Assembly (NCBI GenBank): GCA_903844645.1
Contig: CAIMUP010000027.1
Span: 6,547-70,546, forward strand
Length of the DNA stretch: 64,000 bases
Direction: 5' to 3'
From: an uncultured Bacteroidota bacterium
GTDB lineage: Bacteria > Bacteroidota > Bacteroidia > AKYH767-A > JABDAW01
The translations under genes and the position numbers were made by a program. Below are positions 9,053 to 61,264 of this stretch, in pieces. The notes under the pieces were generated by a model, which was not told where the DNA came from, ran no database searches, and was given only the letters and a program-made list of their open reading frames with translations. The stretch's first letter is position 1; each line of letters starts with the position of its first letter.

Positions 9053-10705
9053 ATGAAGACAATAATAGGGTTCGTAATTCAATTAGTAATGATGGCTGGC
9101 ATCGCGAATGCGCAGAATCAAACGTGGCAATGGGCACATGGCTTCGGGGGAGGCAATGGCGACCAAAGCCTTTGCATCGCTGCCGATAGCTGGGGCAACT
9201 CCTACATCACGGGGTTTTATGGAAGCGACAGTATTCACTTCGGCAATTCGACGATTATTAATCATGGCAGCTCCGATATATTCATCGCGAAGTACAATAC
9301 CCTTGGCGACGCTATCTGGGCAAAAGGGTTCGGGAATGCAGGAGCCGATATTGCCCATGGTATCACGACGGATAGTTACGGCAATATCTATATCACAGGA
9401 TATTTTACCAGTGCTACCATCACCTTCGGGACATTCACGCTGAATAACCAGGGCGAGAACGACTTCTTCCTCGTAAAGTTAGATTCCGCAGGAACGGTGC
9501 AGTGGGCTAAGAGTGCCGGCGGGCAGTGGAATGAATATGGTTACTGCATCACGGCAGATCACGTTGGGAATATTTATGTGAGCGGGTATTATGAGAGTCC
9601 TATCATCACGCTTGGGACTGCCACCTTCACGAATTGGTATAGCTGCGGACAATACATCAGTTGGTTCGTGGCGAAGTTCGATGGTTCGGGGAATAACCTC
9701 TGGAGCACCTGCCCGAATAGTTGCGGAACCATCTACGGAATGCATTGCGACGATGCGAATAACCTCTTTCTTGCTGGTACTTACCAAAGCGACAGCACGG
9801 ATTTCGGGAATAATATCTACCTCTTAAACAATGGCGGAGCAGATGCCTTCATAGCCAAATACTCTTCCACAGGAACCATTCAGTGGGCGAAACAAATTGC
9901 AGGAACTGACTACGACTGGGGGCAGTGTGTTACCACAGACCCTGCCGGCAATGCGTACATCAGCGGGGACTTCTTAAGTCCTACGTTATCGGTTGGGAAT
10001 ACCACGCTCACGAACCACGGAAACTACGATATTTACCTTGCCAAATATACCAATGCAGGCAACTTCGTGTGGGCACGATGTGTCGGCGATACCGCCAGCG
10101 ACAATCCCATGGCAATCTGCACGGACAACTGGTGTTATGTCTATTTAAGCGGTGCGTATGGCAGTGGGCATCTCACCTTTGGCACGCATACGATTGCGAA
10201 TAATGGCTTCACGAATGCCTTCATTGCCAAATACGATTCCGCTGGCACTGCCGTCTGGGCAACGAACCTCGGAGGCAGCAATTTCGATTACGGCTACTCC
10301 ATCACTACTGATGGAAACAACAATATTTACCATACCTCCACCTTCAGCAGCAGTACGATTACGTATGGCAGTCAGGAGGTCTCCGACATTGGCAACTATG
10401 ACGGAGTGGTGGGCAAATTGTCTTACCTCGCGACGGATGTTATGAACCCATTTCAGCCCTCCCCTACCGCCCTTTACCCGAATCCCAACAACGGTTCGTT
10501 CACTATTACTAACACCAACCATTCTCTCGCTACCCGCCTGATGATTACCGATCTCTCGGGCAGGGAAATTGTTGGTTATACTCTGAATCCGAACAGGGAT
10601 ACCGAAGCCATTACGTTGCATCTATCAAGTGGCATTTACTTCTGGCAATTAATCACCGCAGAAGGCACGGTAGATAAAGGCAAATTGGTCATTATCGGTA
10701 ATTAA
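9053..10705 (+). CDS. T9SS-secreted beta-propeller (SBBP-type repeat) protein
   Basis: Signal peptide. Repeated 'SYGNIYITGYF / GNIYVSGYY / GNAYISGDF' beta-propeller-repeat motifs. C-terminus 'ALYPNPNNGSFTITNT...LSSGIYFWQLITAEGTVDKGKLVIIGN' is a Por_Secre_tail. Confidence 0.8.
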   Translation: MKTIIGFVIQLVMMAGIANAQNQTWQWAHGFGGGNGDQSLCIAADSWGNSYITGFYGSDSIHFGNSTIINHGSSDIFIAKYNTLGDAIWAKGFGNAGADIAHGITTDSYGNIYITGYFTSATITFGTFTLNNQGENDFFLVKLDSAGTVQWAKSAGGQWNEYGYCITADHVGNIYVSGYYESPIITLGTATFTNWYSCGQYISWFVAKFDGSGNNLWSTCPNSCGTIYGMHCDDANNLFLAGTYQSDSTDFGNNIYLLNNGGADAFIAKYSSTGTIQWAKQIAGTDYDWGQCVTTDPAGNAYISGDFLSPTLSVGNTTLTNHGNYDIYLAKYTNAGNFVWARCVGDTASDNPMAICTDNWCYVYLSGAYGSGHLTFGTHTIANNGFTNAFIAKYDSAGTAVWATNLGGSNFDYGYSITTDGNNNIYHTSTFSSSTITYGSQEVSDIGNYDGVVGKLSYLATDVMNPFQPSPTALYPNPNNGSFTITNTNHSLATRLMITDLSGREIVGYTLNPNRDTEAITLHLSSGIYFWQLITAEGTVDKGKLVIIGN

Positions 10706-26157: not shown

Positions 26158-26281
26158 TATCATAAAGAATATCCAATACAAATCTCCCCCTGTTATTTTT
26201 ATTTGGGAATTCAATTTCTTTTCATTAACTTTGTGGTTCAATAATCTTAAATTAAGAACTAACCAATTAAAAACTACGATC

Positions 26282-27688
26282 ATGAACAACAACTACCGAA
26301 TCCTCGTCCTTCTTACCCTGAACACCTTGTTCTTTTTCCTTCATTCAATGGCACAATGGAATGCCCCTTTCCCACTATCTCCTAATGCTGTCAATGCGAA
26401 TCTGAATGAAAGCATGGGTTCTTGCCTTGGCGTTAGCGGGGATTCGGTGCATGTGGTCTGGACTGATAAAATCAATTCCACCCATGCCATTCTGTATTAC
26501 CGTCATTCGTTGGATACGGGCTTAACTTGGTCTGCCCCTATTGCTATCACCAATGCTACTGGTAATGCCTGGAATCCTGCTATTGCGGTCAATGGCCGCA
26601 ACGTGCATGTGGCTTGGCGAGAGATTGATACCGTTACCAATCGTCGTGCTTCGTGGTATAAACATTCGTTGGATGGAGGCACTACCTGGAGCCCCAGTAT
26701 GTTCCTTGATTCCACTGCTGATTGGCCCGCAATAGCAGTATCTGGAAGTATGGTGTATATTGCGAACGACAGGGTGGTTTCTCAAAATCCTTATAACACC
26801 GAAATATTTTTTATGAGATCATTAGATAATGGAAATTCATGGAGTATTCCGCAGCAACTCACCGACTCTGTGGGGCGGTCAGAGGATGAATCCATCACGG
26901 CGGAGGGTGCCCACATTTTCATGTCGTGGAATGATAACCGAACCAATCAATTCCAAATATTATACAAAGAATCTGCCGACTATGGCGCAACATGGGGACC
27001 CGATGTGGTTGTGGATTTACCCTTCGATTACAATACGATGGTGAATGTGAATGGCAGCTTCGTGGATGTTATTTCATGCGGCGCACCGTCTGGTCATTAC
27101 CAACTGTTGTTGGCGCAATCAGCCGATACGGGGGCTACCTGGAGCGTAATGAACAACAATTTATCGCACGATACGGCGCATACTTTTTTCCTGCCGCACA
27201 TGACTCGCGATGGCTGCGAACTGCATATCGTGGTGAATTCCAGTGGGGGTGCGAAATACTTCCATTCCCTTGATGGTGGGGCAACGTGGGACCTTCCCTA
27301 CGTTATGAGCGGCGTGAGTTTTATTGCTTATACCTATCACGTGTTGCATGTTATTTATGTTACCTCGGGACGTATTTATTATCTTCATAACAGCACCGGG
27401 AATGCCGGTATGCCGTGCATTACGACGGAGGTTATGCAGCCTGATAACTTGCATTCTATAATTACAATTTATCCGAATCCTGCGACATCCAGCATCACTA
27501 TTCATTCTCCGTTCTCAACGCTCCATTCCCTACTCTCGATTAAAAATATGATGGGGCAAACGGTTTTAAATATGATATTAAACGATGAAACTACGGTGAT
27601 AGATATTTCAAAATTCAGCAAAGGAATTTATTTTATCGAGACAAGAAACGGGGCTGAATTGATTCATCAAAAAATAGTGATAGAATAA
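26282..27688 (+). CDS. T9SS-secreted BNR/Asp-box repeat protein (sialidase-like beta-propeller)
   Basis: Six 'S.D.G.TW' Asp-box motifs (SLDTGLTWS, SLDGGTTWS, SLDNGNSWS, SADYGATWG, SADTGATWS, SLDGGATWD). C-terminal 'IYPNPATSSITIH...KGIYFIETRNGAELIHQKIVIE' Por_Secre_tail. The start is taken at the internal Met before the signal peptide. Confidence 0.8.
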   Translation: MNNNYRILVLLTLNTLFFFLHSMAQWNAPFPLSPNAVNANLNESMGSCLGVSGDSVHVVWTDKINSTHAILYYRHSLDTGLTWSAPIAITNATGNAWNPAIAVNGRNVHVAWREIDTVTNRRASWYKHSLDGGTTWSPSMFLDSTADWPAIAVSGSMVYIANDRVVSQNPYNTEIFFMRSLDNGNSWSIPQQLTDSVGRSEDESITAEGAHIFMSWNDNRTNQFQILYKESADYGATWGPDVVVDLPFDYNTMVNVNGSFVDVISCGAPSGHYQLLLAQSADTGATWSVMNNNLSHDTAHTFFLPHMTRDGCELHIVVNSSGGAKYFHSLDGGATWDLPYVMSGVSFIAYTYHVLHVIYVTSGRIYYLHNSTGNAGMPCITTEVMQPDNLHSIITIYPNPATSSITIHSPFSTLHSLLSIKNMMGQTVLNMILNDETTVIDISKFSKGIYFIETRNGAELIHQKIVIE

Positions 27689-28984: not shown

Positions 28985-31900
28985 ATGATTCAAAACTTAC
29001 AAAATGCCGTCAGAATGCTTGTCGTGAGCCTGTTCTGCATCGTTTCCATCAATGCCTTCGGGGTATTAAACCAGTATAATGTACAACGATTACAACTTTA
29101 TACCAGTGGTAACCACCCGACCAGTATATACTGGCAAGATATGTACAGTGCAACGTATAACTCTGGGCGGGTGCTTCCCACTTGGAATTATACTGCGACT
29201 ACCTACACAGATAATAACTTGAGTACACCGCAGGCATTGCCTTTTACTTTTAACTATGATGGAATAAATAATAATTATTTTTATATCTCAACGAATGGCT
29301 TTATTGTATTAGATACCCTCTCATCGGCTACCCTTGCCTCGAAGCAATTGCCGATGTATGCATCTAATGCCAATCGTGGTCGCAATGCAGGAACAGCCTC
29401 TGCTGATACGGCTTACAATGGAAGTTATTTGTCATTTGTTCATAGCCCAAATCCGGTATCACCCTACTCGAATAATAAATCCTATTCGGCACGAACGATT
29501 GCCCCGTTTTATACGGACCTTGTACCAGGAACTGTAAATAGCACTCCAAGTACGCTTGCTGCGGATATTTGCTGGTATTACAGTCCTGGAAATATTACCA
29601 CAGGCGATACCATGGTTATTATTGAATGGAGGCAATTAAAATTAGTGGCTTGGACGGGTGATTATCGCAGATGCTGGTTTCAGGCAAGGCTTCATAAGAC
29701 TACAGGTATTATTGAATTCTATTACTTCTGGAATGCAAATCAATATACCACTGCTTATCCCCAAAATTACCTTTGCGGCTTAAACTCTGCAACCTGGGCA
29801 GCAGCACCTACTTATGCTAATAATTTTATGCAATCAACGGCGAATAGTACCACCTTTGCCGCCTCGAGTACCGCATCGGCATTGTCTGCTCCCGAAGCCC
29901 AAAAATATAAATTGGTCTTTACAAAAGTCGTTGCAACCGCCGATCTCACCGTATCTAATATTTCACCACCAATTTCCGATACTTGTGGATATAGCAGTTC
30001 GCAAATCATTGTAGATTCTATTCATAATACCGGTAGTACCTTGACTTTTGATGCTACGCACATCCTGAAAGTATATTCCCAAATTACCGATAGCGTAAAT
30101 GGTGCACAAGTGTGGACTGCCTTGGATTCCGGGACTTATACCAGCACCTTCACCACCAATACTACCATCGGAGTTCAGATGCTGCATACCTGGAATTTTT
30201 CTGCCGGAGGGCAATATACCATTCGGACATACTTGAAAGATTCTGTTTACTGTAATCCAACTACGCTCATTGATGGTAATCTTCTTGATAATTCTACGAC
30301 AGTTACAATATACAACAGCAAAGTAACAGCCTCATCGGATGTATCAACTATGTGCAGTGGAGTCTATACTTACCTTCATGCCTCACCAACAATAAATCAT
30401 GCTGTTGATTCTTTGTACTATACTCACTACACAAAAATGACCTACTCTGCACCTGCTGTCCCAACCCACCAAATTACATCTTGGACAGGAGGAAGTAATG
30501 ATGGAACAGCTTATGTTGCTTTACCATTTACATTTCATTTTTTCGGGTATAATAGAAGTGCCTTATATGTTTGCACAAATGGGTTTGTTGAATTTGAATG
30601 TGCTTATACGACTCCTTCAACATCGTTACCAGACAATAATGCAATCTGTCCAAGTGCTTTGGATTGTATTGGAGTTGCTTGGTCTGATATGAGACTTGAT
30701 CTTGGAGGTTCCATTTACTGGGATACTGTTGGAACCACTCCAAACAGAGAGTTTATTTTAAGGTATAATAGAGTTTATGATTCTACAAATGCCACCGCAG
30801 TTTCTGCGTATATGATTTTGCATGAAACAACAAATCTTATCGAATTTCAAAATGATACAATTCCTAGCGGTTCCTATACCCAAGGGATACAGGATTCATT
30901 AGGAGTTAATGCTTATGCTTTAAGTAGCCGGAATTTTAATACCTGGTCAGCTACCCACGATGCTTATTTGTTTTCATCCCAACCGACTTACTATTGGACA
31001 GCATCTCCTACGGATGCATCGCTTACATCTACCGAAGCCTGCAAACAAAATCCTTATGTTTCTCCAACGGTAACTACGATATATACCGTTACGATGAATG
31101 GAGGAAACACCGGCTACCCGGATAGCATCGGCATCTGTCCGAAAACAAGTACTGTTACCGTAACGGTTACTGCTGGCTTGGGAGCTATCGGGGCTATATC
31201 AGGACCTGCCACCGTTTGTGCATACACAAACGTAACCTACATCGTTCCTACAGTAACCAATGCAACAAGTTATATTTGGGATTATTCTGGTTTGACAGGT
31301 TGTACTTTTTTGAGTCAACATACTGATACCATAAACTTAACATTAGGCGGAAGCCCAGGTGGATACATCAGAGTAAGAGCATACATGTCATCTTGCGGAA
31401 CCTATACCGCTTGGGCACAATTGTATGTAACCATCGTTGATAATGTGTACGGAGCAGGGCAATGGGTGGGCGGAATCAGTACCGACTGGTTCACGGTTCT
31501 TAATTGGTGTGGTGGTCTTCCAACCTCCACGATTGATGCCAATATTGATAACACGTATTATACTTCTACCTACTTCCCTGTCATCTATTCAAGTGGTGCC
31601 GTTTGTAAAGATTTAAGAATGGGTGGCGTCAACGAAGCTCTGACAATTAATACCGGATATAATTTAGATGTCTATGGATCATGGTGGAATGGATGGAATG
31701 GGTATTCCGCAACTGTTACCGCAAATTCTGGTAGCACAGTAACTTTCAAAGGAACAAGCTCCTTAGAATATATTGATGGATACATCCCTACCACATTTGC
31801 TAATATTATCATTAACCGAGGAAGTGATACAACATCTGTTATCGAAAATATTTACGGCAACTCACCTCCTTCAACTATGAACATGACTGGAAACTTAACC

Positions 31901-33754
31901 ATTACAAATGGTTTATTCAGAGTGAGTGAAACAACTTCTTCCGTTCAATATACTGCTTCGACAACCATGACCATTCCTTCGACAGGTGGTTTGGAATTGA
32001 ATGGTGGAAATCTTGTTTCCGGTAATTATTCTATAACTAATAATGGTTTATTCCGAATGACATCTTTAGCTGCCGATGATACATTAGGAACAACAGCGGG
32101 CAATTCCATTACCAATAGCGGAGCTGGTTCCTTAATGGATATTCAGGGTGGTAAATTAACTGTGGCATCACAAATTATTGTGAAAAGCGGTGCCACTTTT
32201 AAGTTTGATGATATGAACACCAATAACTACATCAACAACGGCGGTCAGCAAGATACCATCGTTCTTAATAAACAAGGAACTACCAATAATACCCAAGCCC
32301 TTTTTGAAGTAGATGCCACCTCGAAAATGTACATCACCGATGGATACTTTATTTTCCACAATCCTAATTCAGGTACTGGGTATGATTTAAGATTCAGCAA
32401 CGGGTCAGGAACAAAATTCTTAGACGCAAATAACAGCAGCACCTTCCAATTTGGTGAGGCAAGCACCACTTCGGCTTCCGCAATTTTCAAAATGGTAGAT
32501 ACTGCCGGGCTGGTGTTCAGTAATATCACCATCAATCCGGGTGGAGGTCATGATACAGTCTATTTTTATTCCCCAATTTCGTTGAATTCAAACGGAGCAT
32601 TTGCCTTGAATAGCGGAATATTAAAATTGAACAGCAACAAGCTCACTTTAATGAACTCCAGTACCAACGCCATCACCCGTACTACCGGTTTTGTAATCTC
32701 TGAAAGTGCTACAAATTTAAGTTCTATCAAGTGGAATATCCCTATTGATTTCGTTGCCCATCGGTATCCTTTTGCGAATAGCAGCGGTACGTTCATCCCC
32801 TTCTATTTCCAAGGAACGGGAGGCACCGGAACGTATGTAACAGTAGCCACTTATGCCCCTACTACCAATGTTATTTCGCATACACCGTACCCGCCTACCG
32901 TTACCCATATCCGGAATACCGCAGGCGTGAACGATAGCGCATATATGGTCAATAGATTCTGGCAAATTGATGCCGATACCTCTATCGGACATCCTACAGC
33001 AACGATGTATTTCAAATATGCCGCTGCCGAAGCTCCCGCAATAAATAATACCACCGCCCTCAATGCCCAACGATGGAATGCAGGAAATACAGGATGGTTT
33101 CAGCCAACAGGTTCCCAATCGTGGGTCGGTGGTGCAAGCGATTCGGTGAGAACACCCAGTGTTTCTACATTTTCTCCCTGGACATTAGCCCAAACAGGGC
33201 ATTCATTGCCGATTGAATTATTAAACTTTACAGCGACATATAATGGATTGAATGTGGACTTAAACTGGTCAACAGCCTCTGAAACGAACAACGAATATTT
33301 CACTATTTTAAGGACAGTAAACAATTCAGATTTCGATTTCATTACCTCCGTTGCAGGTGCGGGGAATACCAATATTTTTACCAATTACCACGCCGTAGAT
33401 TACAAGCCCTTGACCGGACTTTCTTATTATCAATTGAAGCAAACCGATTTCGATGGGCATACCACGCTGTCGGACCTGAAACCGATTACCATCGGCAACA
33501 CGGTGTTCGAGATTAAGAACATTTATTCCAATCACGATGAAAGCACCATCCACGTGTTGGTGAATGATAATGTGAACGAAAATATCACCGTGCTGTTGGT
33601 AGATGTATTGGGGAATGTGATGGTTCGTCAAAAAGAAGCTCTCACAAGCACCGCTTCCGACATTAAAATTAATGCCGCCAATCTCCCACTCGGCATCTAT
33701 TTTATCACCGTCCAATCCGATACCAAGGTGATTACCGGAAAGGTGATTTATTAA
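28985..33754 (+). CDS. Large T9SS-secreted surface protein (1589 aa), function unknown
   Basis: Signal peptide. Duplicated 'PFTFNYDG..NYFYISTNGFIVL / LPFTFHFFGYNRSALYVCTNGFVEF' domains. Long Thr/Asn/Gly-rich beta-helix-like middle. C-terminal 'KNIYSNHDESTIHVLVND...LPLGIYFITVQSDTKVITGKVIY' Por_Secre_tail. Confidence 0.75.
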   Translation: MIQNLQNAVRMLVVSLFCIVSINAFGVLNQYNVQRLQLYTSGNHPTSIYWQDMYSATYNSGRVLPTWNYTATTYTDNNLSTPQALPFTFNYDGINNNYFYISTNGFIVLDTLSSATLASKQLPMYASNANRGRNAGTASADTAYNGSYLSFVHSPNPVSPYSNNKSYSARTIAPFYTDLVPGTVNSTPSTLAADICWYYSPGNITTGDTMVIIEWRQLKLVAWTGDYRRCWFQARLHKTTGIIEFYYFWNANQYTTAYPQNYLCGLNSATWAAAPTYANNFMQSTANSTTFAASSTASALSAPEAQKYKLVFTKVVATADLTVSNISPPISDTCGYSSSQIIVDSIHNTGSTLTFDATHILKVYSQITDSVNGAQVWTALDSGTYTSTFTTNTTIGVQMLHTWNFSAGGQYTIRTYLKDSVYCNPTTLIDGNLLDNSTTVTIYNSKVTASSDVSTMCSGVYTYLHASPTINHAVDSLYYTHYTKMTYSAPAVPTHQITSWTGGSNDGTAYVALPFTFHFFGYNRSALYVCTNGFVEFECAYTTPSTSLPDNNAICPSALDCIGVAWSDMRLDLGGSIYWDTVGTTPNREFILRYNRVYDSTNATAVSAYMILHETTNLIEFQNDTIPSGSYTQGIQDSLGVNAYALSSRNFNTWSATHDAYLFSSQPTYYWTASPTDASLTSTEACKQNPYVSPTVTTIYTVTMNGGNTGYPDSIGICPKTSTVTVTVTAGLGAIGAISGPATVCAYTNVTYIVPTVTNATSYIWDYSGLTGCTFLSQHTDTINLTLGGSPGGYIRVRAYMSSCGTYTAWAQLYVTIVDNVYGAGQWVGGISTDWFTVLNWCGGLPTSTIDANIDNTYYTSTYFPVIYSSGAVCKDLRMGGVNEALTINTGYNLDVYGSWWNGWNGYSATVTANSGSTVTFKGTSSLEYIDGYIPTTFANIIINRGSDTTSVIENIYGNSPPSTMNMTGNLTITNGLFRVSETTSSVQYTASTTMTIPSTGGLELNGGNLVSGNYSITNNGLFRMTSLAADDTLGTTAGNSITNSGAGSLMDIQGGKLTVASQIIVKSGATFKFDDMNTNNYINNGGQQDTIVLNKQGTTNNTQALFEVDATSKMYITDGYFIFHNPNSGTGYDLRFSNGSGTKFLDANNSSTFQFGEASTTSASAIFKMVDTAGLVFSNITINPGGGHDTVYFYSPISLNSNGAFALNSGILKLNSNKLTLMNSSTNAITRTTGFVISESATNLSSIKWNIPIDFVAHRYPFANSSGTFIPFYFQGTGGTGTYVTVATYAPTTNVISHTPYPPTVTHIRNTAGVNDSAYMVNRFWQIDADTSIGHPTATMYFKYAAAEAPAINNTTALNAQRWNAGNTGWFQPTGSQSWVGGASDSVRTPSVSTFSPWTLAQTGHSLPIELLNFTATYNGLNVDLNWSTASETNNEYFTILRTVNNSDFDFITSVAGAGNTNIFTNYHAVDYKPLTGLSYYQLKQTDFDGHTTLSDLKPITIGNTVFEIKNIYSNHDESTIHVLVNDNVNENITVLLVDVLGNVMVRQKEALTSTASDIKINAANLPLGIYFITVQSDTKVITGKVIY

Positions 33755-34252: not shown

Positions 34253-35179
34253 ATGAAAAGAAAACTTACAACAATCGTAATCATGTTGCCGCTTGTGTTC
34301 TTTGCATTGAGCAGCCACGCACAGTTGATGCTACTGTTCAATGAGGACTTCAATGCTGGCGGCGGAACTTTCACCCTTAACGGCACCGGTGTCGGCACAA
34401 ATACCGGCAGCAATCTATGGGTCGTGAATAACCATTACTTCCCCACGAACTGGGCTTTTCCTGCCACAATTGATGAGGACCAGGTATGTAGCACCGGGCA
34501 TATTACGGCTGCACCCTTCAGCGGATATTTGCATATCAATAATGTGTCATTGCCTACCGATAGTAATTCGGATTATAACCCTATGCATGCATCGGACCGA
34601 TTTGCTTATATGACCAATGGTGTTTCCACGATTGGCAGAGATAGCGTAGAGGTAGCGTTCTTCTACAACTGTCAAGGCTCTTCGACTGCATACGCAGAGT
34701 TCTATTATAGCAAGAACAACGGTCCGTGGATACAGGCAGGGCTGCCGAATTATAACAACGATTCTTGCTGGAAGTATGAAACAATTACCGACACGAATTT
34801 TTTAAATGCAGCGAGTTTCAGAATTGGTTTCCGATGGGTGAATGACTCCAGTTTTACCGATACTGTAAGCCAGGGAATGGGTATTGATGATATTTTTATC
34901 GTCGGACATACAGCAACAGGTGTGGAAGAAATTGCTGGAAAGTCAGCTATTACCCTCTTCCCCAACCCCGCCTCCACCATTCTTAACATGCATCAATCCA
35001 CCCCATCCCCAAATCAGCAATTAATCATCACAGACCTTCTCGGCACTGAAGTTTATAAAGAAATGCTTACCGGCATTGATAATACCATCTCTATCTCCAC
35101 TTGGAGCGCAGGTATTTATTTCTATGAAGTAAGAACCGAAAAAGAAAGCGCAAGAGGGAAGTTCGTCGTGCAGAAGTAA
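34253..35179 (+). CDS. T9SS-secreted hypothetical protein
   Basis: Signal peptide. C-terminal 'ITLFPNPASTILNM...SAGIYFYEVRTEKESARGKFVVQK' Por_Secre_tail. Confidence 0.75.
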   Translation: MKRKLTTIVIMLPLVFFALSSHAQLMLLFNEDFNAGGGTFTLNGTGVGTNTGSNLWVVNNHYFPTNWAFPATIDEDQVCSTGHITAAPFSGYLHINNVSLPTDSNSDYNPMHASDRFAYMTNGVSTIGRDSVEVAFFYNCQGSSTAYAEFYYSKNNGPWIQAGLPNYNNDSCWKYETITDTNFLNAASFRIGFRWVNDSSFTDTVSQGMGIDDIFIVGHTATGVEEIAGKSAITLFPNPASTILNMHQSTPSPNQQLIITDLLGTEVYKEMLTGIDNTISISTWSAGIYFYEVRTEKESARGKFVVQK

Positions 35180-51588: not shown

Positions 51589-52227
51589 TTAATGGAAAGG
51601 AAATCCGCCAAAAGGGTCTGACCATACGCCATCGCCAGTGGTATTTCGACCAAAAATCCGATAAGTCGTCTTGATGTCTTTATTTTTCGGATATACCACG
51701 CCGCCTCTTGAATTATTAAAAGAAGTAGGGTTGGCAGGATAATACACCGCCTCATTCGTAATATCGGCACTTTGGGTTTCCATTACCTGATAAGAATCCG
51801 AATGCGACTCTTTATGCATGTGCATCAAGCCTTGACCGGTGTGGTCGCCTTGCACTACCGAACATCCATCCACCTTGCCCGGAACGGGGCGTTTATGATT
51901 TTCCTCCGTCAAAACAATCCCCAAACCGGTCAGTTTTGCCTCGTTATGAGGATAAATTTCATTCGCCTTATCTACCCCGGCATTATAGCTAAGGATGAAG
52001 GTTGCTTTCGCAGTTTCCTCCACCACTCTTGCTTCCAAGAGGGCGATTTCGAGGTTCTCTACGATTAATTTTTTCGCAGCCAATGCCGCCACATCGGTAT
52101 TGATGACATCGCCCTTGGCAATGACCTGCGCATTGGCATCGGAGTGCATTAAGGGTCCGACTATTTCTCCCTGGTCAATCAAGTCCTGGATGGTTTCATT
52201 TGGTGAAACATGTTTTCCTTTTCTCAT
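51589..52227 (-). CDS. Hypothetical protein
   Basis: 212-aa ORF directly upstream of the Gly-rich secreted protein, on the same strand. Confidence 0.45.
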   Translation of the reverse strand: MRKGKHVSPNETIQDLIDQGEIVGPLMHSDANAQVIAKGDVINTDVAALAAKKLIVENLEIALLEARVVEETAKATFILSYNAGVDKANEIYPHNEAKLTGLGIVLTEENHKRPVPGKVDGCSVVQGDHTGQGLMHMHKESHSDSYQVMETQSADITNEAVYYPANPTSFNNSRGGVVYPKNKDIKTTYRIFGRNTTGDGVWSDPFGGFPFH

Positions 52228-52332
52228 TTTCTTAAATTTTAATTGTTAATTTATGGTTATTACTATTTATTTTATTACTAATTCACTGATAATGAAGATC
52301 ATAAAATGTCTTTTACCTATCTCATCCATCTT

Positions 52333-52538
52333 GTTATTTGGTAAATAACAACTGTTATTTACCAAATAACAACTGTTTTCTGCCAAATAACAACTGTTAT
52401 TTTCCAAGAAACAACTGTTATTTTTCCGGCAACAGTTGTTATTTTCCAAAAAACGACTGTTATTTTTCAGCCAACAGTTGTTATTTTCTAAGAAACAACT
52501 GTTATTTTAGAGATAACACCTGTTGTTTTCCAAAAAAC
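52333..52538. repeat. Tandem array of 21-bp units (ccaaataacaactgttatttt), about 9 copies; each unit holds the palindrome aacaactgtt, and some copies are inverted
   Basis: Direct reading. Lies upstream of the 51589..52227 gene start. Confidence 0.9.
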
Positions 52539-52745
52539 AATCCCTCCAAACCCGTCTCTCTTTTTTCCAACCTGTTAAAGAACCTCTACTTTTTTCTGTG
52601 GGATTTTTTACCCTCCTTCTCTTCGTATAATTTTTCTTCGGAAGGGCAGTAGAAAGATTGTCATTTCAATTTCCTACTCAACTCTGAAAGTTATCGGCGG
52701 CAAATATAGAAAAGTTTTCGGGAATGGAATGGGAGAGGGAAAGAT

Positions 52746-53711: not shown

Positions 53712-53777
53712 AACCGCCCCTCCATTGCTGAAGGGGCGGTAAGTTTTAAGAAATTAGATTTCTAATTCCTATTGGAA

Positions 53778-56700
53778 TTACTGAACCATAATCTTAGTTT
53801 GTAATGTCTGTCCACCTGTTTCGAGGCTTAAGAAATATACACCCTTAACGATGTTTGCAGTATTTAATTCAACTTGGTTATCGCCGATTGCAGAAGCATT
53901 CACTTGGCTCATGATAACTCTTCCTGTAAGATCTACTAAACGCAAGGTATAGTTGTCAGATGTTTGAGAATTGAAGACAACAGTAGCATGGTCAGTAGCT
54001 GGATTTGGATAAACATTGAAAGCAGAGATTGTTTCGATGTCGCCATCAGCCATTCTTGCAGCAGTGAATAATTGTGGAGCACTTGGACCTGAATTCGTTG
54101 TTGTGCTACAGTTAGTTTGGATAGTCCATGAATAGTTATGTCCATGAGTTAAACCAGAGAACGTGTAGTGAGAATTCGGTGCGAAAGTGAAAGTAGCAAC
54201 TGCCAATGTGTTCAAGTCTGTACGAACGATTGTATAACCAGAAACGCATGAAGGCTGATTCCAAGAAACATAAGCAGAGTTCGTAGTGATGCTTGAAGTA
54301 GCCATGTTAGTAGGCAATACGCAATCAACACTTAAATTAACACATGCAACTCCTGAACAACCGTTAGTGCTTGTAATTGTTACACAATACAATCCTGGAT
54401 GACCTGGAGTAATTGTGATAGAAGCTAAAGTAGCACCTGTGCTCCAGTTGTAAGCATAACCAGCTTGAGCAGCTAAAGTTACGTTACCTGTGTTAGCGCA
54501 ATACGTAGCAAGACCGGTTGTGGTAATGTTAGTATTAACACCTGTTAACACCTGTACAGAGTGAGTAGCTGTTCCTGTGCAACCACAAGCATTGGTAACG
54601 GTTACTGTGTAACCAGCAGAACCAGAAGCAATAGTAGTTGTTTGAGTAGTAGCGCCATTGCTCCATAAATAAGCAGCATAGCCAGCACCAGCATTAATGG
54701 TTACAGGACCACAATTTGCGAAAGAAGGAGAAGCTGTCATTGTAACAACTGGTCTTGGGCAGAAACTGGTAGTAGTGTAAGAAGCTGTACCGCTACATCC
54801 ATTTGCATTAGTTACAGAAACAGTGTATGTTCCTGCAGCAGTAATGTTAATGTTTTGAGTAGTAGCACCAGTGCTCCATAAGTAAGTAGCGAAACCAGAG
54901 TTAGCACTTAATACCATTGAAGAGGCAGTACAAGGAGCAGGAACTGGACCAGCAGTGATTATTGGAGTTACGAAATCGGTTACTGTAACAGTAGCACAAA
55001 CAGTACCTGTACAACCATTGGAATAAGAAACGGTTACGCAATAAGTTCCTGAAGTGGTTATAGTAGTTCCATAATCTGCAACTGTAGAGCCATTACTCCA
55101 AATATAAGAAGTATAATGTGGATTGTAAATAACATTTAAGTTAACAGAACCACCTTGACAGAAAGTCAAAGGACCATTTGAAGTAATATTTGGAACAGGT
55201 GCCACACCAACAGTAATTGAATGGTGAGCAGTACCTGTACAACCTGCAGCATTAGAAACAGTTACTATGTAATTTCCTGTATTAGTAACAGTGATAGATT
55301 GGGTTGTTGCACCAGTACTCCATAAATAACCTGCATAAACACCAGTAGTTAAAATAGAAGAACCACCTTGACAGTCATAAACAGCACCAGAGATGGTAGG
55401 AATTGGATTCTGACTAACTGTAACAGATTTGCAAGCAGTTCCTGTACATCCGTTACCATCAGTAACAGTTACACAATAGGTACCAGCAGCAGTAACTGTA
55501 ATAGAAGAAGAATGAGAACCATTGCTCCATGTATAAGAAGCCCAAGTACCAGCATTTAATGTTCCTGAACCAGGAGCACAAATTTGAGATGGACCAGAGA
55601 TAGTTGGAGTTGGAGCAGAATTAATCGCTACTGATTGACAAGCTACACCTGTACATCCGTTACCATCGGTTACAGTTACACAATAGTTTCCTGAAGTAGT
55701 AACAGTTGCAGAAGCATTAGTTCCACCATTGCTCCATGAATAAGAAGCATAAGTTCCAGTGCTTAAAGTAATAGAACCACCGCAAGAACTGGAAGGACCA
55801 GAAACAGCAGGAGTTGGAGCAGAATGAACGCTTACTTGTTGACAAGCAACACCTGTACAACCATGAATATTTGCAACAGTTACACAATAGTTACCACTAG
55901 ATGTAACAGTAATAGAACCATTAGTTCCACCATTGCTCCATGAATAAGAAGCCGCTGTTCCTGTACTTAATGTTAAAGAACCAGAGCATGAACTTGTAGG
56001 TCCAGAGATACTTGGTTGAGGATTATCATAAATTGTAACGCCTACACATGTAGAACCTGAACAACCATGACCATCAGTTACAGTAACACAATTTTGTCCT
56101 GTAGAACATGCTGAAATAGTTTGGTTAGTTCCTCCATTTGACCAGTTGTAACCAGCATAAGAACCAGCGTCTAAAGTTACGCAAGAACCAGCACAAGCAG
56201 TAGTAGCACCAGAGATAGAAGGAGTTGGGTTATCATAAATTGTTACATCAACACAAGTAGAACCTGAACAACCGTTACCATCAGTTACAGTTACACAATT
56301 TTGTCCTGTAGAACAAGCTGTAATAGATTGGTTTGTTCCTCCATTTGACCAGTTGTAACCAGCATAAGAACCAGCATCTAAAGTTACGCAAGAACCTGCA
56401 CAAGCACTAGTAGCACCAGATATAGAAGGAGTTGGATTATCATAAATTGTAACATCTGTACAAGCAGTTCCCATACATCCATTACCATCAGTAACCATTA
56501 CACAATAGTTACCTGATGAACATACAGTAGTATTTTCGGAATTATCTCCTGTTGTCCAAGCGTAATCAGCCCAAGAACCTGCATCTAAAGTTACGCAAGA
56601 ACCAGAACAAGCAGTAGTAGTACCAGAAATAGAAGGAGTTGGATTGTCATAGATAGTTACCCACTGACAAGCTGAACCCATACAACCGTTACCATCAACT

Positions 56701-58520
56701 ACAGTAACACAATAGTTATCTGAAGAACAAGCAGAAGTTGTTGGTGTCATATCTCCATTGCTCCAAGAATAACCATCCCAAGAACCTGCATCTAAAGTAA
56801 CACAAGAACCTGCACAAGCAGAAGTATTTCCAGAGATTGAAGGAGTTGGATTTGCATTAAAAGAAACAAATTGGCTAGCTGAACCCATACAACCATTTCC
56901 ATCAGTAACAGTTACTATTTCGGTAGCAGCACCACTTGTAAAGGTATAACTTTCATCTGTTGAAAAATAACCTGTAATACTATTATACCAAGAATAACTT
57001 GCCCAAGAACCAGCATCCAAAGTTACTGTATTACCATCACATACTGTTGTAGGTCCATTAGATGTAATAACTGGAACTGGATTAGTATTAACTGTTACAT
57101 CCATACAATCTTCACCTGTACATCCATTAGGATCTGTAATAACTACACAATATGTTCCTGAAGTAGTAGCTGTAACAGTTTCGTCTGTTCCGCCATTATA
57201 ATTCCAAGAATAATTATCCCATGTTCCGCCATCTAAAACAACTGAACCTCCATCGCAGAAAGTAGTGTTACCACCAGCTGTGATATGTGGATGAGGTGTT
57301 GGATTAACAGTTACATCTTGACAAGCAACGCCTGTACAACCATTATCATCAGTTACTGTACAGCAGAATGTTCCGCCATTGTCTAAAGTAATCATTTCAG
57401 CTGATGAACCGTTGCTCCAGCTATAAGAAGCATAAGTTCCTGCATCTAAAGTTACATTTCCTCCATTACAGAATACTGGAGGTGAGCTATAAGTAAGTGT
57501 AGGTGTTGGAGAATCATGAACCACTACATCAATACAACCTACGCAAGTACATCCACCTGCATCAGTAACAGTACAGCAATAAGAACCTGCAGTTACAGCA
57601 GTAAGAGTTTGAGAATGTGAACCATTGCTCCAGGTATAAGCTGCCCAAGAACCAGCATCTAAAGTTACATTACCGCCTGAACAGAATGATAAATTACCAG
57701 AAGCGGTGATTGAACAAGAAATGTTGTTGTTTCCACCTGTTACATCATGGCAAGCAGCGGCTGTACAGCCCCAGAAAGAAGTAGCAGTTACGCAATAAGT
57801 GCCTGCTGATGTTACATCAATACTTGGTGTGTTTGCGCTGTTGCTCCAAGAATAAGCATTAACTCCCCAGCTACCATTAGCAGTAAGGGTTGCATGTCCG
57901 CCTCCGCAATTCAAATTGCCTGTTTGGCTGATTGAAACTGATGGATTTGGCAATACAATAATAAAACGATACGCGACGCCTGTACATCCCCAAACATTGG
58001 TTACTGTACAAGAATACCAACCGATGTTGGTAGCCGATGTGGTTTGTGTGGTAGCACCGTTGCTCCACATGTAAGAAGAATACCCTGCGCCTGCATCCAA
58101 ATTCATGTGACCTGCGCACCAGTTAAATGGTCCGCCGATGTGAATGACTGGATGTGGACGTGGATGAACCGTTACGTGAATCGAAGCTACACCTGTGCAG
58201 CCGTTCGAAGCAGTAACCGTTACATGGTACGTGCCGGTGAAAAACGCATTAATACTTTGCGTGTTTGCACCTGTGTTCCAATGATAATGGGAATAATTCC
58301 CTGTGCTTAAATGCACATGTCCACCAGCACAAATGGTCGTCGGACCATTCGCTGTAATGGTTGGAGGTACCGGAATAGTACATTCCGAATTCACCGAAAT
58401 TTCGGTGTTGATAGAAGGTGTCCCATTTCCTTCTGTAGTCGGGGTTTTTGCAGACAGGTTAGTGCCGAATAAGGCAAGAACCAAGCAAAGGATGACTGGT
58501 AAAAGTTTTAATTTGTTCAT
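53778..58520 (-). CDS. Giant T9SS-secreted adhesin-like protein (1580 aa): about 18 Cys-containing Ig-like repeats, FN3-like domain, Por_Secre_tail
   Basis: Signal peptide. Repeats of '...TxCxGxxVTLDAGS.A.Y.WSNG...TIT...G.YCVTVTDGNGC.G..C..VT....P.P' including near-identical copies. C-terminal 'ISAFNVYPNPATDHATVVF...KGVYFLSLETGGQTLQTKIMVQ'. Confidence 0.85.
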   Translation of the reverse strand: MNKLKLLPVILCLVLALFGTNLSAKTPTTEGNGTPSINTEISVNSECTIPVPPTITANGPTTICAGGHVHLSTGNYSHYHWNTGANTQSINAFFTGTYHVTVTASNGCTGVASIHVTVHPRPHPVIHIGGPFNWCAGHMNLDAGAGYSSYMWSNGATTQTTSATNIGWYSCTVTNVWGCTGVAYRFIIVLPNPSVSISQTGNLNCGGGHATLTANGSWGVNAYSWSNSANTPSIDVTSAGTYCVTATSFWGCTAAACHDVTGGNNNISCSITASGNLSFCSGGNVTLDAGSWAAYTWSNGSHSQTLTAVTAGSYCCTVTDAGGCTCVGCIDVVVHDSPTPTLTYSSPPVFCNGGNVTLDAGTYASYSWSNGSSAEMITLDNGGTFCCTVTDDNGCTGVACQDVTVNPTPHPHITAGGNTTFCDGGSVVLDGGTWDNYSWNYNGGTDETVTATTSGTYCVVITDPNGCTGEDCMDVTVNTNPVPVITSNGPTTVCDGNTVTLDAGSWASYSWYNSITGYFSTDESYTFTSGAATEIVTVTDGNGCMGSASQFVSFNANPTPSISGNTSACAGSCVTLDAGSWDGYSWSNGDMTPTTSACSSDNYCVTVVDGNGCMGSACQWVTIYDNPTPSISGTTTACSGSCVTLDAGSWADYAWTTGDNSENTTVCSSGNYCVMVTDGNGCMGTACTDVTIYDNPTPSISGATSACAGSCVTLDAGSYAGYNWSNGGTNQSITACSTGQNCVTVTDGNGCSGSTCVDVTIYDNPTPSISGATTACAGSCVTLDAGSYAGYNWSNGGTNQTISACSTGQNCVTVTDGHGCSGSTCVGVTIYDNPQPSISGPTSSCSGSLTLSTGTAASYSWSNGGTNGSITVTSSGNYCVTVANIHGCTGVACQQVSVHSAPTPAVSGPSSSCGGSITLSTGTYASYSWSNGGTNASATVTTSGNYCVTVTDGNGCTGVACQSVAINSAPTPTISGPSQICAPGSGTLNAGTWASYTWSNGSHSSSITVTAAGTYCVTVTDGNGCTGTACKSVTVSQNPIPTISGAVYDCQGGSSILTTGVYAGYLWSTGATTQSITVTNTGNYIVTVSNAAGCTGTAHHSITVGVAPVPNITSNGPLTFCQGGSVNLNVIYNPHYTSYIWSNGSTVADYGTTITTSGTYCVTVSYSNGCTGTVCATVTVTDFVTPIITAGPVPAPCTASSMVLSANSGFATYLWSTGATTQNINITAAGTYTVSVTNANGCSGTASYTTTSFCPRPVVTMTASPSFANCGPVTINAGAGYAAYLWSNGATTQTTTIASGSAGYTVTVTNACGCTGTATHSVQVLTGVNTNITTTGLATYCANTGNVTLAAQAGYAYNWSTGATLASITITPGHPGLYCVTITSTNGCSGVACVNLSVDCVLPTNMATSSITTNSAYVSWNQPSCVSGYTIVRTDLNTLAVATFTFAPNSHYTFSGLTHGHNYSWTIQTNCSTTTNSGPSAPQLFTAARMADGDIETISAFNVYPNPATDHATVVFNSQTSDNYTLRLVDLTGRVIMSQVNASAIGDNQVELNTANIVKGVYFLSLETGGQTLQTKIMVQ
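56020..56460. repeat. Near-identical 213-bp (71-codon) tandem duplication inside the 1580-aa gene
   Basis: 'atcataaattgt[a/t]ac...agatagaaggagttgg' occurs twice in succession with only a few substitutions. Lower-identity copies extend to about 56900. Confidence 0.8.
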
Positions 58521-58619: not shown

Positions 58620-59282
58620 TTATGAAATAATCCCCAAATACCGTGTCGCGGCTTTCCCTAACTTCTTATCCCCTGTCAAATACCGAGTATAACTTACGAA
58701 GCTCATGCCCAAATTTTCCGCATCATATACTATAACATCTTTCCCACTATTAATAACATCGGTTTGGGTACACTGTTTTTCGGTCGGAATCGGTCCGCCC
58801 AACAAATAAAACCCTGTTTTAATCCGAAAACTCGCCTGCCCTACCGGTTTTTTCCTCGGCGTAAATTTATATTTTCCGACCAAGGTAGCCTTATTTGTAT
58901 ATCCCACGGCTGGTGCTACTTCGCTTGCCACCGATTTCGTCTTCGATTTCGGGGCGTTCGGAACACCGATTTCGGTACGGTTTTCATCAGGAATCAAGGT
59001 ATTATTCTTCACCTCCTCCTTCGTGATTTTCCGGATATACGCTATCAATGCCACCCTCGCCGTTTCGGTATTGTCATAATCAATCTGTCTCGCCGTCGCA
59101 GTAAGCTTCGAGATAGCATAATATGCTGCATAAGTGGTATGAAGCCCTTGCAAAATCGTATTCTTACCAGTCGTAATGTGCCATGCCGAAATATTGGCAC
59201 CGATTTCCGAACAAAAAGTCGTCTGAAACGTGTCAAACGCCTCCACTGCAATAGGTATCCAATCTTTATTTCCGCCTGCCAT
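58620..59282 (-). CDS. Hypothetical protein
   Basis: 220-aa ORF with no recognisable motifs. Confidence 0.45.
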   Translation of the reverse strand: MAGGNKDWIPIAVEAFDTFQTTFCSEIGANISAWHITTGKNTILQGLHTTYAAYYAISKLTATARQIDYDNTETARVALIAYIRKITKEEVKNNTLIPDENRTEIGVPNAPKSKTKSVASEVAPAVGYTNKATLVGKYKFTPRKKPVGQASFRIKTGFYLLGGPIPTEKQCTQTDVINSGKDVIVYDAENLGMSFVSYTRYLTGDKKLGKAATRYLGIIS

Positions 59283-60229: not shown

Positions 60230-61264
60230 TTACTGCAAAACAATTTTGCGAATCACCGATTCTTTATCCGTAATAATCTGAATGAAATAAATGCCCTTTG
60301 CGAGGTCTTTCAGGTCTATCATTTTGTTAAATTCTCCCGTCGTTGCGTCATTCATCGAGGTATAAACCGTTTGTCCTTCGGGATTCAAAATATTTAATTT
60401 CAGCGAAGAATTATCATTAGTAATAAAATTTAGATGAACCACCCCCGTCGCCGGATTCGGGAAGATATTCAAGGAATTGGCGATCGTATTTTCCTCCGCC
60501 ACGCCCGTCGTAGTTAAATAACTCAATCGCACCGAATCAATCGCAATCGAAGGATCACCGCCCATAGCATCATCATTATTAGTCCAGTTAAACCCAATCT
60601 TTACATTAGGATTATTATTCGCCGAAGCGGGCAAAATAACCATCGGATATGCCGTCCAGGTTCCTTGCGGAATGCAAGCCGTATTATCGCTGAAGGCGAT
60701 TTGTTGAAGCGTGCTCCAGGTAATTCCATCATAGTAATCTATCCTCGCATAATCGTAGGCAGTATCGCCATCCGCCATGTAATTAAAGTTAAGATGGATA
60801 GAATACTTTCCCGTGCAGTTAATGGTCGGTGAAGCGGCTCTGGCATTGGCTTTCACGCTGCCATCGGTAATACCGGCATCGTACGCCGCGCCACAGTCGC
60901 CAGTAGGGCAAAACAAAGTGGAAAGTGGCGATCCGGCAACATTGCCCACATGAAGGGTAGCGTTGTTCGAGGTGCAAGAAGTTCCGCAGTCGCCCACGGC
61001 ATTTCCGTTCTCTGCGCAGCTTACGAACCATGTGTTCGCAAAAGAATTGTTTGTACCTGTGCTCATCCATGTCCACGCACCGTTAGGACCGGTGGTATAC
61101 GATGAAACGAGGCACCCCGAGGAGCAATTGTTGGTAAAGTTTTCTGTCCAAAAAACCGTCTGGCTTTTGGTAATTGTAGCATTTAAGAAGATAAAGATAA
61201 ACGCAAGAACCATGATGGTTAGTGCCTTTCGGAATGTTTCGGTGTTTGTAATTTTTGATTTCAT
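60230..61264 (-). CDS. T9SS-secreted hypothetical protein
   Basis: Signal peptide. C-terminal 'LNIFPNPATGVVHLNF...LAKGIYFIQIITDKESVIRKIVLQ' Por_Secre_tail. Confidence 0.75.
   Translation of the reverse strand: MKSKITNTETFRKALTIMVLAFIFIFLNATITKSQTVFWTENFTNNCSSGCLVSSYTTGPNGAWTWMSTGTNNSFANTWFVSCAENGNAVGDCGTSCTSNNATLHVGNVAGSPLSTLFCPTGDCGAAYDAGITDGSVKANARAASPTINCTGKYSIHLNFNYMADGDTAYDYARIDYYDGITWSTLQQIAFSDNTACIPQGTWTAYPMVILPASANNNPNVKIGFNWTNNDDAMGGDPSIAIDSVRLSYLTTTGVAEENTIANSLNIFPNPATGVVHLNFITNDNSSLKLNILNPEGQTVYTSMNDATTGEFNKMIDLKDLAKGIYFIQIITDKESVIRKIVLQ

Follow-up and report, generated by a model that had tools for sequence, protein, structure and literature searches.

GhpA of Aureispira sp. CCB-QB1, a substrate of type IX secretion (by the T9SS), is a heptameric protein of 5898 residues, whose stem consists of 52 disulfide-rich Ig-like repeats and whose hook is formed by residues 26-1402, a module of about 1400 N-terminal residues; the ghpA gene adjoins homologues of PorP and PorE (ghpB/ghpC), and the GhpA authors pointed out a similarity to SprB (bioRxiv 10.1101/2024.01.29.577165). 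Structures are available as PDB entries 9flp, 9fls-9fly and 9g8b. T9SS cargo with a type A C-terminal sorting domain is covalently anchored to anionic LPS (PMC9143113). Here we describe a gene for a 1580-aa protein built on homologous repeats, found within a 64-kb stretch of DNA from an uncultured Bacteroidota bacterium (the window, to whose numbering all coordinates refer).

The coding sequence spans positions 53778-58520 of the minus strand, the strand of all features given below, and comes from the list of open reading frames, with the exact protein present on at least five public contigs. Inspection of the translation places a Sec-type signal peptide at residues 1-24 (58449-58520; MNKLKLLPVILCLVLALFGTNLSA ahead of KT), which is conserved in the three closest homologues, P0002, P0004 and P0009. 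The array itself starts after 47 residues, signal peptide included: a search with a repeat-derived profile resolves residues 48-1398 (54327-58379) into 19 contiguous PKD/Ig-like domains of 68-75 residues and 64-103 bits each, numbered R1 to R19 from the N-terminus. Downstream follow a fibronectin type III (fn3) domain at residues 1403-1482 (54075-54314; Pfam fn3, 27.5 bits versus a cut-off of 25) and a T9SS type A sorting domain at residues 1503-1580 (53781-54014), recognised by both TIGR04183 (54.3 bits, cut-off 23) and PF18962 (52.1 bits, cut-off 27). Profile matches of this strength identify the protein as a T9SS type A cargo, which bears out the reading frame and the secretion class proposed in an earlier note on this DNA, drawn up from the letters and their translations; the same note's adhesin label is a guess, because the protein has no distinct ligand-binding head, and a Pfam scan detected neither a catalytic nor a head domain in it.

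A hairpin resembling an intrinsic terminator, with a 12-bp stem containing 8 GC pairs and a T-rich tail, was located by a promoter/terminator scan at 53713-53740 and starts 38 nt past the stop codon. The neighbouring genes encode a DUF4190 membrane protein, a 220-aa protein devoid of Pfam matches and a DUF3127 protein; Pfam scans found no PorP/SprF or OmpA-like (PorE) domain among them, and the same kind of scan over the neighbouring reading frames, combined with the promoter/terminator scan, gave no sign of a recombinase or an invertible promoter. The O-glycosylation sequon D(S/T)(A/I/L/V/M/T), canonical for Bacteroidota, is absent from the 1580-aa protein, so that heavy glycosylation of the GhpA kind is not inferable from the sequon motif. 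Seven reading frames in the window carry a type A sorting domain, from which we deduce that the source organism uses a T9SS; T9SS machinery genes (SprA/Sov, PorU, PorV, GldKLMN) were not seen within the 64 kb. The product of a neighbouring E2 acyltransferase gene is at most 64-67% identical to its counterparts in MAGs of uncultured "Bacteroidia bacterium", which points to an organism lacking close representatives.

A second T9SS cargo of the same family lies 45 kb away, as the earlier note had recognised. This 2377-aa paralogue (1340-8473) begins with leucine-rich repeat (LRR) modules, continues with eight repeats of the family (1907-3607; 41-59% amino acid identity to those of the 1580-aa protein) and closes with fn3 and type A sorting domains. 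The cassette formed by the fn3 and sorting domains is 48% identical between the two proteins, and together with the repeats it supports an LRR head of 1600 aa in the 2377-aa protein and, according to their domain lists, other domains in further homologues. The suggestion that the two genes offer each other targets for ectopic recombination is one that we reject: by blastn and exact-match scans their DNA is too diverged, with a best alignment of 65 nt at 83% and no exact match beyond 21 nt. For recombination of the RecA type, 21 identical nucleotides lie at or under the shortest segment that is usually required, and sequences this divergent are kept from recombining by mismatch repair.

To place the repeat structurally, we modelled R10 by itself and a run of four repeats with AlphaFold. 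The R10 model is all-beta (pLDDT 94.6) and is matched by solved PKD-like domains, in line with a PKD/Ig-like beta-sandwich and with the Ig-like nature proposed at the outset. For the four-repeat model (pLDDT 95.1, pTM 0.67) the predicted inter-domain geometry is less sure than the pLDDT implies, because the alignments consist of paralogous repeats from the window and one of them, A2, is partly out of register. A profile built from all 27 repeats of the two window proteins aligns to GhpA (9flp) over more than 23 stretches with an E-value of 4.2e-62, and the four-repeat model superposes with all four domains on seven GhpA fragments (TMq 0.69-0.80, E 1e-17 to 1e-20), against a TMq of at most 0.38 for other multi-Ig structures. 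Profile and model thus agree in identifying the GhpA stem as the closest solved relative of the 1580-aa protein. The family is large, the repeat profile recovering about 110,000 representative proteins, and in Pfam it lies nearest to PF19081 (Ig_7), which 17 of the 27 repeats match at E ≤ 1 (best E 3.9e-5) and which scores 16.2 bits (E 0.013) on the whole 1580-aa protein, under its gathering cut-off of 27.3. Across Pfam and NCBIfam no family calls the repeat in this protein above its curated threshold; the repeats are, judged by these scores, related to PF19081 yet not called as members.

Only Y30, W32 and C59 are invariant in the 27 aligned repeats. The motif CxGSCVTLDAGS...C...CVTVTDGNGC..C with its six cysteines, a pattern ascribed earlier to all repeats, is indeed common to R8-R11 and is confined to them, the remaining 15 repeats following a looser consensus with two to four, occasionally five or six, cysteines. 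Among 5247 distinct repeats sampled from 249 proteins, 99% have a cysteine at profile column 17 and 99% at column 61, while extra cysteines occur in both of columns 52/66 in 114 repeats and in one of them in 3, and in both of columns 21/46 in 39 and in one of them in none; these covarying repeats come mostly from a few related proteins, so that the counts do not represent independent events. In the R10 model, residues 50 and 64 occupy facing positions of the predicted F-G hairpin, whose strands cover residues 47-54 and 60-68. Covariation and strand register are the basis of the disulfide pairing that we propose. From the strictly paired gain and loss of the extra cysteines we predict, in a form open to testing, that each 69-aa domain contains between one and three disulfides; for R10 the predicted pairs are C15-C59, C19-C43 and C50-C64 in repeat numbering.

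At the nucleotide level, Tandem Repeats Finder detects two arrays, one of period 207 at 56020-56912 (4.3 copies, 79% matches, score 891) and one of period 204 at 55441-56006/56092. The first corresponds to block A (R8-R11, 56037-56864), which has a 207-bp period and the six-Cys, or three-Cys-pair, pattern, and the second to block B (R12-R14, 55416-56030), of 204/207-bp period and four-Cys subtype. Within block A, R10 (residues 691-759, 56244-56450) and R11 (residues 760-828, 56037-56243) are the near-identical adjacent pair that the earlier note had singled out; their unit is 207 bp or 69 codons, not the 213 bp or 71 codons given there, and the copies are separated not by a handful of nucleotides but by 17 of 207 (91.8% identity), with five amino acid changes. 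Lengths of 71-75 codons do occur in the array, in repeats other than these two. The lower-identity copies said to continue to about 56900 are R8 and R9 (56451-56864), which extend block A at 71-75% nucleotide identity, and every repeat pair other than R10/R11 remains at or below 75%. Identity of 92% over 207 nt in a 19-unit array cannot have arisen by chance. The 17 differences are scattered over the whole unit, leave a longest exact run of 41 bp and comprise 12 synonymous and five non-synonymous changes (dS 0.27, dN 0.033, dN/dS 0.12); given this extent and pattern of divergence, R10/R11 is an old duplication under purifying selection rather than a fresh one. Block B, in which R12 and R13 share 71% amino acid identity, is a tandem expansion of the four-Cys subtype that predates that of block A.

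When the array is compared with those of the closest homologues, P0002, P0004 and P0009, the reciprocal best matches of R1-R6 and R16/17-R19 run collinearly, whereas R8-R11 collapse onto one or two repeats in all three, R12-R14 all map to one repeat in P0004 and to one in P0009, and at this mid-array position the homologues instead have a 63-aa unit, in five, two or one copies. We use the term closest homologues for all three since P0004 alone shares the upstream 220-aa gene, and the different gene contexts of P0002 and P0009 make their orthology uncertain; as P0004 and P0009 occur in one sample, some of the differences between lineages may moreover be differences between paralogues. With the ends of the array corresponding one-to-one and the middle differing in number and type, the alignments indicate that copy number shifts over evolutionary time and that mid-array repeats were duplicated in the lineage of the 1580-aa protein.

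We consider it likely that the protein forms a cell-surface fibril or stalk of PKD/Ig-like domains, the length of which changes on evolutionary time. In such a model, the 1580-aa protein would be exported by Sec, and its 19 domains would fold and oxidise in the periplasm, each around one invariant cysteine pair and most with one or two extra pairs. Passage across the outer membrane would then be through the type IX secretion system, which would recognise the type A C-terminal domain. As in other type A cargo, the sorting domain would afterwards be cut off and the protein fixed to the cell surface by its C-terminal end. The domains may form a straight beads-on-a-string rod like a single strand in the stem of the GhpA grappling hook, and C-terminal attachment of a straight rod would put the conserved R1-R3, which contain the His-rich motif HVHL...HYHW, at its far tip. 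The near-duplicates would be remnants of lineage-specific duplications that took place mid-rod, first giving R12-R14 and later R8-R11, each of which would have lengthened the stalk; because these copies diverged under purifying selection, the changes in length belong to evolutionary rather than generational time. That change is centred mid-array and leaves the tip and base repeats in one-to-one correspondence fits a stalk with evolving length and constant end function.

The duplication could alternatively mark a contingency locus, at which 207-bp units recombine or slip often enough to yield in-frame length variants, with the 2377-aa paralogue as ectopic partner. The units are indeed in tandem and in frame, R10 and R11 do share a 41-nt identical run, and the closest homologues differ in repeat number in just this zone, which is the part of the suspected copy-number variability that stands. 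We nevertheless judge frequent length switching unlikely. Contingency genes are expected to show near-100% identical units and length polymorphism; here the two most similar units show 91.8% identity and a dS of 0.27, their differences are spread along the unit, no homogenisation is evident, and the other pairs do not exceed 75%, which makes the designation of a textbook substrate for copy-number change an overstatement for copies 8% diverged with at most 41 identical nucleotides in a row. All public contigs that carry the protein encode the same 1580 residues, in a sample that is small and nearly clonal, and a further two assemblies, each produced from another sample by another pipeline, are identical to the window over the 4743 nt of the gene, their flanks differing from it at 3/20223 and 1/6054 nt. 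The population comparison called for in the earlier note yields no near-identical length variant, whether in exact-protein and cluster look-ups or in a homologue search of 5.8 billion protein clusters, the next-best protein there being 54% identical, and scans of JGI metagenome contigs and GTDB genomes returned no related locus at all. The paralogue, at no more than 83% over 65 nt and 21 identical nucleotides, makes a poor partner.

Equally improbable, in our estimation, is a protein that is released or forms a coat, acting as a soluble polymer-binder in the manner of the PKD-like domains in collagenases and glycoside hydrolases or as a component of a surface layer. Some type A cargo is released into the medium, the next-best structural matches after GhpA are PKD-like domains of collagenases and carbohydrate-binding modules, and the protein is free of catalytic and head domains, all of which would suit this role. 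The nearest relative in both structure and sequence is, however, a cell-attached appendage, the same cassette serves as C-terminal support for the LRR head of the 2377-aa paralogue, and covalent anchoring to anionic LPS is the fate described for type A cargo (PMC9143113), which together favour the surface stalk.

The GhpA relationship itself invites a third reading, in which several copies pack laterally to build a stem that is hollow and rigid, and act as a short grappling hook that catches other cells. Both proteins are T9SS substrates built on homologous Ig-like stem repeats, and the predicted four-domain geometry fits GhpA strands. The differences nonetheless make such a multimer highly improbable: GhpA has 52 repeats of about 80 aa in 5898 residues, against 19 of 69 aa in 1580; its N-terminal hook of some 1400 residues is replaced by the 47 residues that precede R1; and the genes next to it encode PorP and PorE homologues, whereas those here encode the DUF4190 protein and the 220-aa protein. 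With about 110,000 member proteins, repeat homology also says little about oligomeric state. A bolder variant, which we regard as a long shot, would make the protein a short, head-less GhpA relative that forms a multi-stranded rigid surface spike, its length tuned in a mid-array growth zone and its inserts stiffened by two extra co-varying disulfides per 69-aa domain. In the growth-zone picture, lineages would independently amplify different subtypes, the 69-aa six-Cys unit here and the 63-aa unit in P0004 and P0009. Were it true, appendages of the GhpA type would be modular and common among uncultured Bacteroidota, and not peculiar to ixotrophic predators.

An origin of the near-identical copies in misassembly, by collapse or duplication, is a concern raised at the outset that has practically no chance of being correct, because two independent assemblies give the same gene (identical at 4743 nt, flanks 3/20223 and 1/6054), R10 and R11 differ at 17 sites and share at most 41 consecutive nucleotides, which is within the resolving power of ordinary short reads and of assembly graphs with k=141, and the 12 synonymous versus five non-synonymous differences follow a pattern of purifying selection. 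The duplication is real, and its size is now measured correctly.

Returning to the surface stalk as the preferred reading, the 1580-aa protein would be a surface protein of an ordinary, secreted kind, and since large repetitive Ig/PKD-like T9SS cargo is very common in Bacteroidota, the finding changes mostly nothing in the general picture. Its wider use lies in the GhpA stem as a structural template for annotating thousands of "hypothetical" giant proteins, the abundant repeat being called by no Pfam model at its curated threshold in the 1580-aa protein.

Among other known systems, the PKD-like domains of clostridial ColG/ColH and of KIAA0319L/AAVR share 14-19% sequence identity with the repeats, do not have the conserved cysteine pair, and occur in one or two copies beside an enzyme rather than in a 19-unit array. 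SprB and RemA of Flavobacterium johnsoniae are likewise large, repetitive, Ig-like surface proteins exported by the T9SS. The SprB repeat family PF13573 matches two of the 27 repeats (E ≥ 0.038), and SprB carries a type B sorting domain and is encoded next to SprF; the sorting domain here is type A, and no PorP/SprF neighbour was found. The PF19081 Ig_7 family is associated with CHU_C and occurs in those large, repetitive Bacteroidota proteins that are named for a "gliding motility-associated C-terminal domain", many homologues combining PF19081 with CHU_C (PF13585) or a T9SS tail; unlike the CHU_C (type B) proteins, the 1580-aa protein has a sorting domain of type A at its C-terminus.

The 1580-aa protein is encoded by an intact open reading frame on the reverse strand (53778-58520), in which anchoring of the repeat borders, first on the invariant Y-x-W motif and afterwards on a repeat-derived profile, resolves 19 contiguous repeats of 68-75 aa each (R1-R19 from the N-terminus), spanning aa 48-1398. 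At the DNA level, Tandem Repeats Finder reports a period-207 array at 56020-56912 (4.3 copies, 79% matches, score 891) and a period-204 array at 55441-56006/56092. The most similar pair consists of R10 (aa 691-759, window 56244-56450, reverse strand) and R11 (aa 760-828, 56037-56243, reverse strand), so that the back-to-back, near-identical Ig-like units described in the earlier note do exist in a real reading frame; however, the unit measures 207 bp (69 codons) rather than 213 bp (71 codons), and its two copies differ at 17/207 nt (91.8% identity, 5 amino acid changes, longest identical run 41 nt) and not by a handful of nucleotides. R8 and R9 (56451-56864) show 71-75% DNA identity to R10/R11 and to one another. 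The six-cysteine motif previously attributed to all repeats holds in R8-R11 but is confined to these four, and only Y30, W32 and C59 are invariant in the 27 aligned repeats that the protein and its 2377-aa paralogue, a T9SS cargo of the same window, jointly contribute. The initial description was broadly right, but its reading as a recombination hotspot finds little support except on an evolutionary time scale.

The array is followed by an fn3 domain (aa 1403-1482; 27.5 bits, cut-off 25) and a type A T9SS sorting domain (aa 1503-1580; 54.3 bits, cut-off 23), both assigned by Pfam/NCBIfam on the same strand, and a putative Sec signal peptide, identified by inspection, opens the protein and is kept in the closest homologues. 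In composition, the protein holds 28% Ser+Thr, 84 Cys and only 13 Lys+Arg. It lacks the Bacteroidota O-glycosylation sequon D(S/T)(A/I/L/V/M/T) altogether against a shuffle expectation of 6.5 +/- 2.3, and 0.15% of residue shuffles reach so low a count, a depletion that, given the non-independence of the repeats, is no more than suggestive.

A strong terminator-like hairpin follows the stop codon at a distance of 38 nt, and the locus is flanked by reverse-strand ORFs of 220 aa (58620-59282) and 212 aa (51589-52227) with no Pfam match. The former also sits upstream of the closest homologue, P0004, which suggests a possible functional link with the stalk gene. An intergenic array (52332-52540), with the 212-aa ORF on one side and a DUF4190 ORF on the other, comprises about ten tandem 21-bp units (consensus TGTTATTTGCCAAATAACAAC), each internally palindromic (GTTATTT...AAATAAC); it could be an array of protein-binding sites or a structured RNA/DNA element, and the mechanical ORF 52338-52652 on the forward strand is merely this array read in frame. 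Type A sorting domains also end six further ORFs of 2377, 550, 485, 1589, 308 and 344 aa (1340-8473, 9053-10705, 26231-27688, 28985-33754, 34253-35179 and 60230-61264), a concentration of secreted or surface proteins that is unusual for 64 kb. The heads of the seven vary among LRR, SBBP beta-propeller, BNR/sialidase-like, PKD_6 or none; the remainder of the window consists of housekeeping genes, including an E2 acyltransferase gene whose only matches, at 64-67% identity, are in uncultured Bacteroidia MAGs, so that the host is an uncultured Bacteroidota lacking a near reference genome.

The repeat falls below the cut-off of every Pfam family: the nearest, Ig_7 (PF19081), scores 16.2 bits against 27.3 for the whole protein, and single repeats match Ig_7 weakly (17/27) or a K319L-like PKD (14/27); at threshold, neither Ig_7 nor PKD calls the protein. 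The PKD/Ig-like fold is evident in the AlphaFold model of R10, calculated from an alignment of the 27 window repeats, which is all-beta with a mean pLDDT of 94.6, and Foldseek agrees. Searched against the whole PDB, the repeat profile has a sole significant match, the stem of Ig-like repeats of grappling hook protein A (GhpA) from Aureispira sp. CCB-QB1 (PDB 9flp; E 4.2e-62, more than 23 stretches), followed by collagenase PKD domains at E about 0.07-0.1. The four-repeat model of R8-R11 (pLDDT 95.1, pTM 0.67) superposes along its full four-domain length on seven fragments of GhpA (TMq 0.69-0.80, E 1e-17 to 1e-20), every other multi-Ig structure reaching a TMq of at most 0.38. The domains are accordingly predicted to be arranged as in a GhpA strand, in a straight rod, by models whose alignments hold only paralogous repeats from the window, with one alignment, A2, partly out of register.

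As a building block, the repeat is very widespread: searched against 1.84 billion library entries, the 27-repeat profile matches 109,753 representative proteins with E <= 1e-3 (22,657 with E <= 1e-30), some with up to ~89 repeats and more than 7000 aa, and a word-based search queried with the complete protein gives more than 4600 matches at E <= 1e-10, many named "T9SS type A sorting domain-containing protein". Among 5247 distinct near-full-length repeats from 249 retrieved proteins, cysteines at profile columns 17 and 61 each occur in 99%, and 93% of the repeats have exactly two. The additional cysteines of the 1580-aa protein come strictly in pairs: columns 52 and 66 carry both in 114 repeats and one only in 3, and columns 21 and 46 both in 39 and one only in none; these counts trace back to a handful of related proteins and do not represent independent events. 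The F-G hairpin of the R10 model (strands 47-54 and 60-68) places residues 50 and 64 opposite one another. We infer one family-wide disulfide, a second in 13/19 repeats and a third in R8-R11; the GhpA stem likewise has many intramolecular disulfides (bioRxiv 10.1101/2024.01.29.577165).

An assembly duplication as the source of the R10/R11 pair is contradicted by the identity of the gene at 4743/4743 nt in two further assemblies of different sample and assembler origin, whose flanks differ from the window at 3/20223 and 1/6054 nt, and by the ease with which short reads resolve copies sharing at most 41 identical nt; the exact protein is present on at least five public contigs.

The 2377-aa paralogue (1340-8473, reverse strand) does contain the same repeat family, as had been claimed, with eight repeats at 41-59% amino acid identity to those of the 1580-aa protein and an fn3 and sorting-domain cassette at 48% identity (E 5e-58). 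RecA-dependent recombination requires about 20-30 identical nt, and once the partners diverge by a few per cent, mismatch repair strongly suppresses it. The best DNA alignment between the two genes is 83% over 65 nt, with a longest exact shared run of 21 nt, and they are thus poor recombination partners, contrary to the proposal of ectopic targets. The paralogue has at least six LRR modules (LRR_4 and EndoS-type LRR in Pfam), each closing with a conserved '...IQVDDV.Y...W...ID..A.FSLNC' segment, ahead of its eight PKD-like repeats, fn3 and type A sorting domain, and from this layout looks like a head-on-stalk adhesin; the stalk cassette is common to several proteins, combined with an LRR head here and with different domains in homologues.

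Nor is there any sign of recent duplication or gene-conversion homogenization of R10/R11 in Nei-Gojobori counts (12 synonymous and 5 nonsynonymous differences; dS 0.27, dN 0.033, dN/dS 0.12) or in the spread of the differences, which are scattered along the whole unit; both repeats have long been maintained under purifying selection.

In-frame copy-number change is seen among homologues and not within the species. The closest homologues, P0004 (1621 aa, 54% identity), P0002 (1455 aa, 52%) and P0009 (1435 aa, 48%), have the signal peptide and overall layout in common with the 1580-aa protein, and in a repeat-by-repeat comparison each of the three contains collinear reciprocal best matches to R1-R6 and R16/17-R19. 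R8-R11 correspond to just one or two repeats per homologue, and R12-R14 collapse onto one repeat in P0004 and one in P0009, their best matches in P0002 being weaker and divided between two. R10 and R11 cluster at 93% amino acid identity, against at most 71% for cross-protein pairs. Exactly at the position of the R8-R11/R12 junction, the homologues hold a distinct 63-aa unit (NPTVTAGDVSGC...; 'NPTVTAGDVSGCAGSNITLLGSPAGGTW..YTYSYTDGNGCSGQATSNITV') in five (P0004, aa ~624-938), two (P0009, aa ~628-753) and one (P0002) copies, and the 1580-aa protein in none; its copies are 84-89% identical to one another in amino acids (81% in nucleotides in P0009) and score only 3-10 bits against the PKD-like repeat profile. 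The repeat-by-repeat comparison therefore shows repeat turnover in the mid-array, as a zone of independent domain gain and loss in different lineages between stable ends, although some comparisons may be between paralogues, because only P0004 shares a neighboring gene with the window locus and P0004 and P0009 co-occur in one sample. Within the species, all public copies, a small and almost clonal sample, are 1580 aa long, and no near-identical length variant was found in the protein database.

Following Sec export, the protein would fold and become oxidized in the periplasm, be translocated by the T9SS, lose its sorting domain and be attached to the surface as for type A cargo, which is linked to anionic LPS (PMC9143113). 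It would then form an extended rod of ~70-80 nm, by our estimate of 3.5-4 nm per Ig-like domain, with the conserved N-terminal R1-R3 at the distal tip. Identity across homologues is 63-87% in R1-R2, which are among the best-conserved repeats, 49-74% in R3 and about 51-72% in R17-R19. R1 (58167-58379, reverse strand) carries a His-rich motif, GGHVHLSTGNYSHYHWNTG, shared by P0002 and P0004 and in part by P0009, and may be a metal- or ligand-binding tip.

Compared with known systems, the protein is not a GhpA family member, because it has no hook module, no adjacent PorP/PorE genes and a third of the repeats, and SprB-like identity is not supported by the SprB repeat model. It belongs to a known, very large kind of protein and would act like a single strand of a GhpA- or SprB-type stalk.
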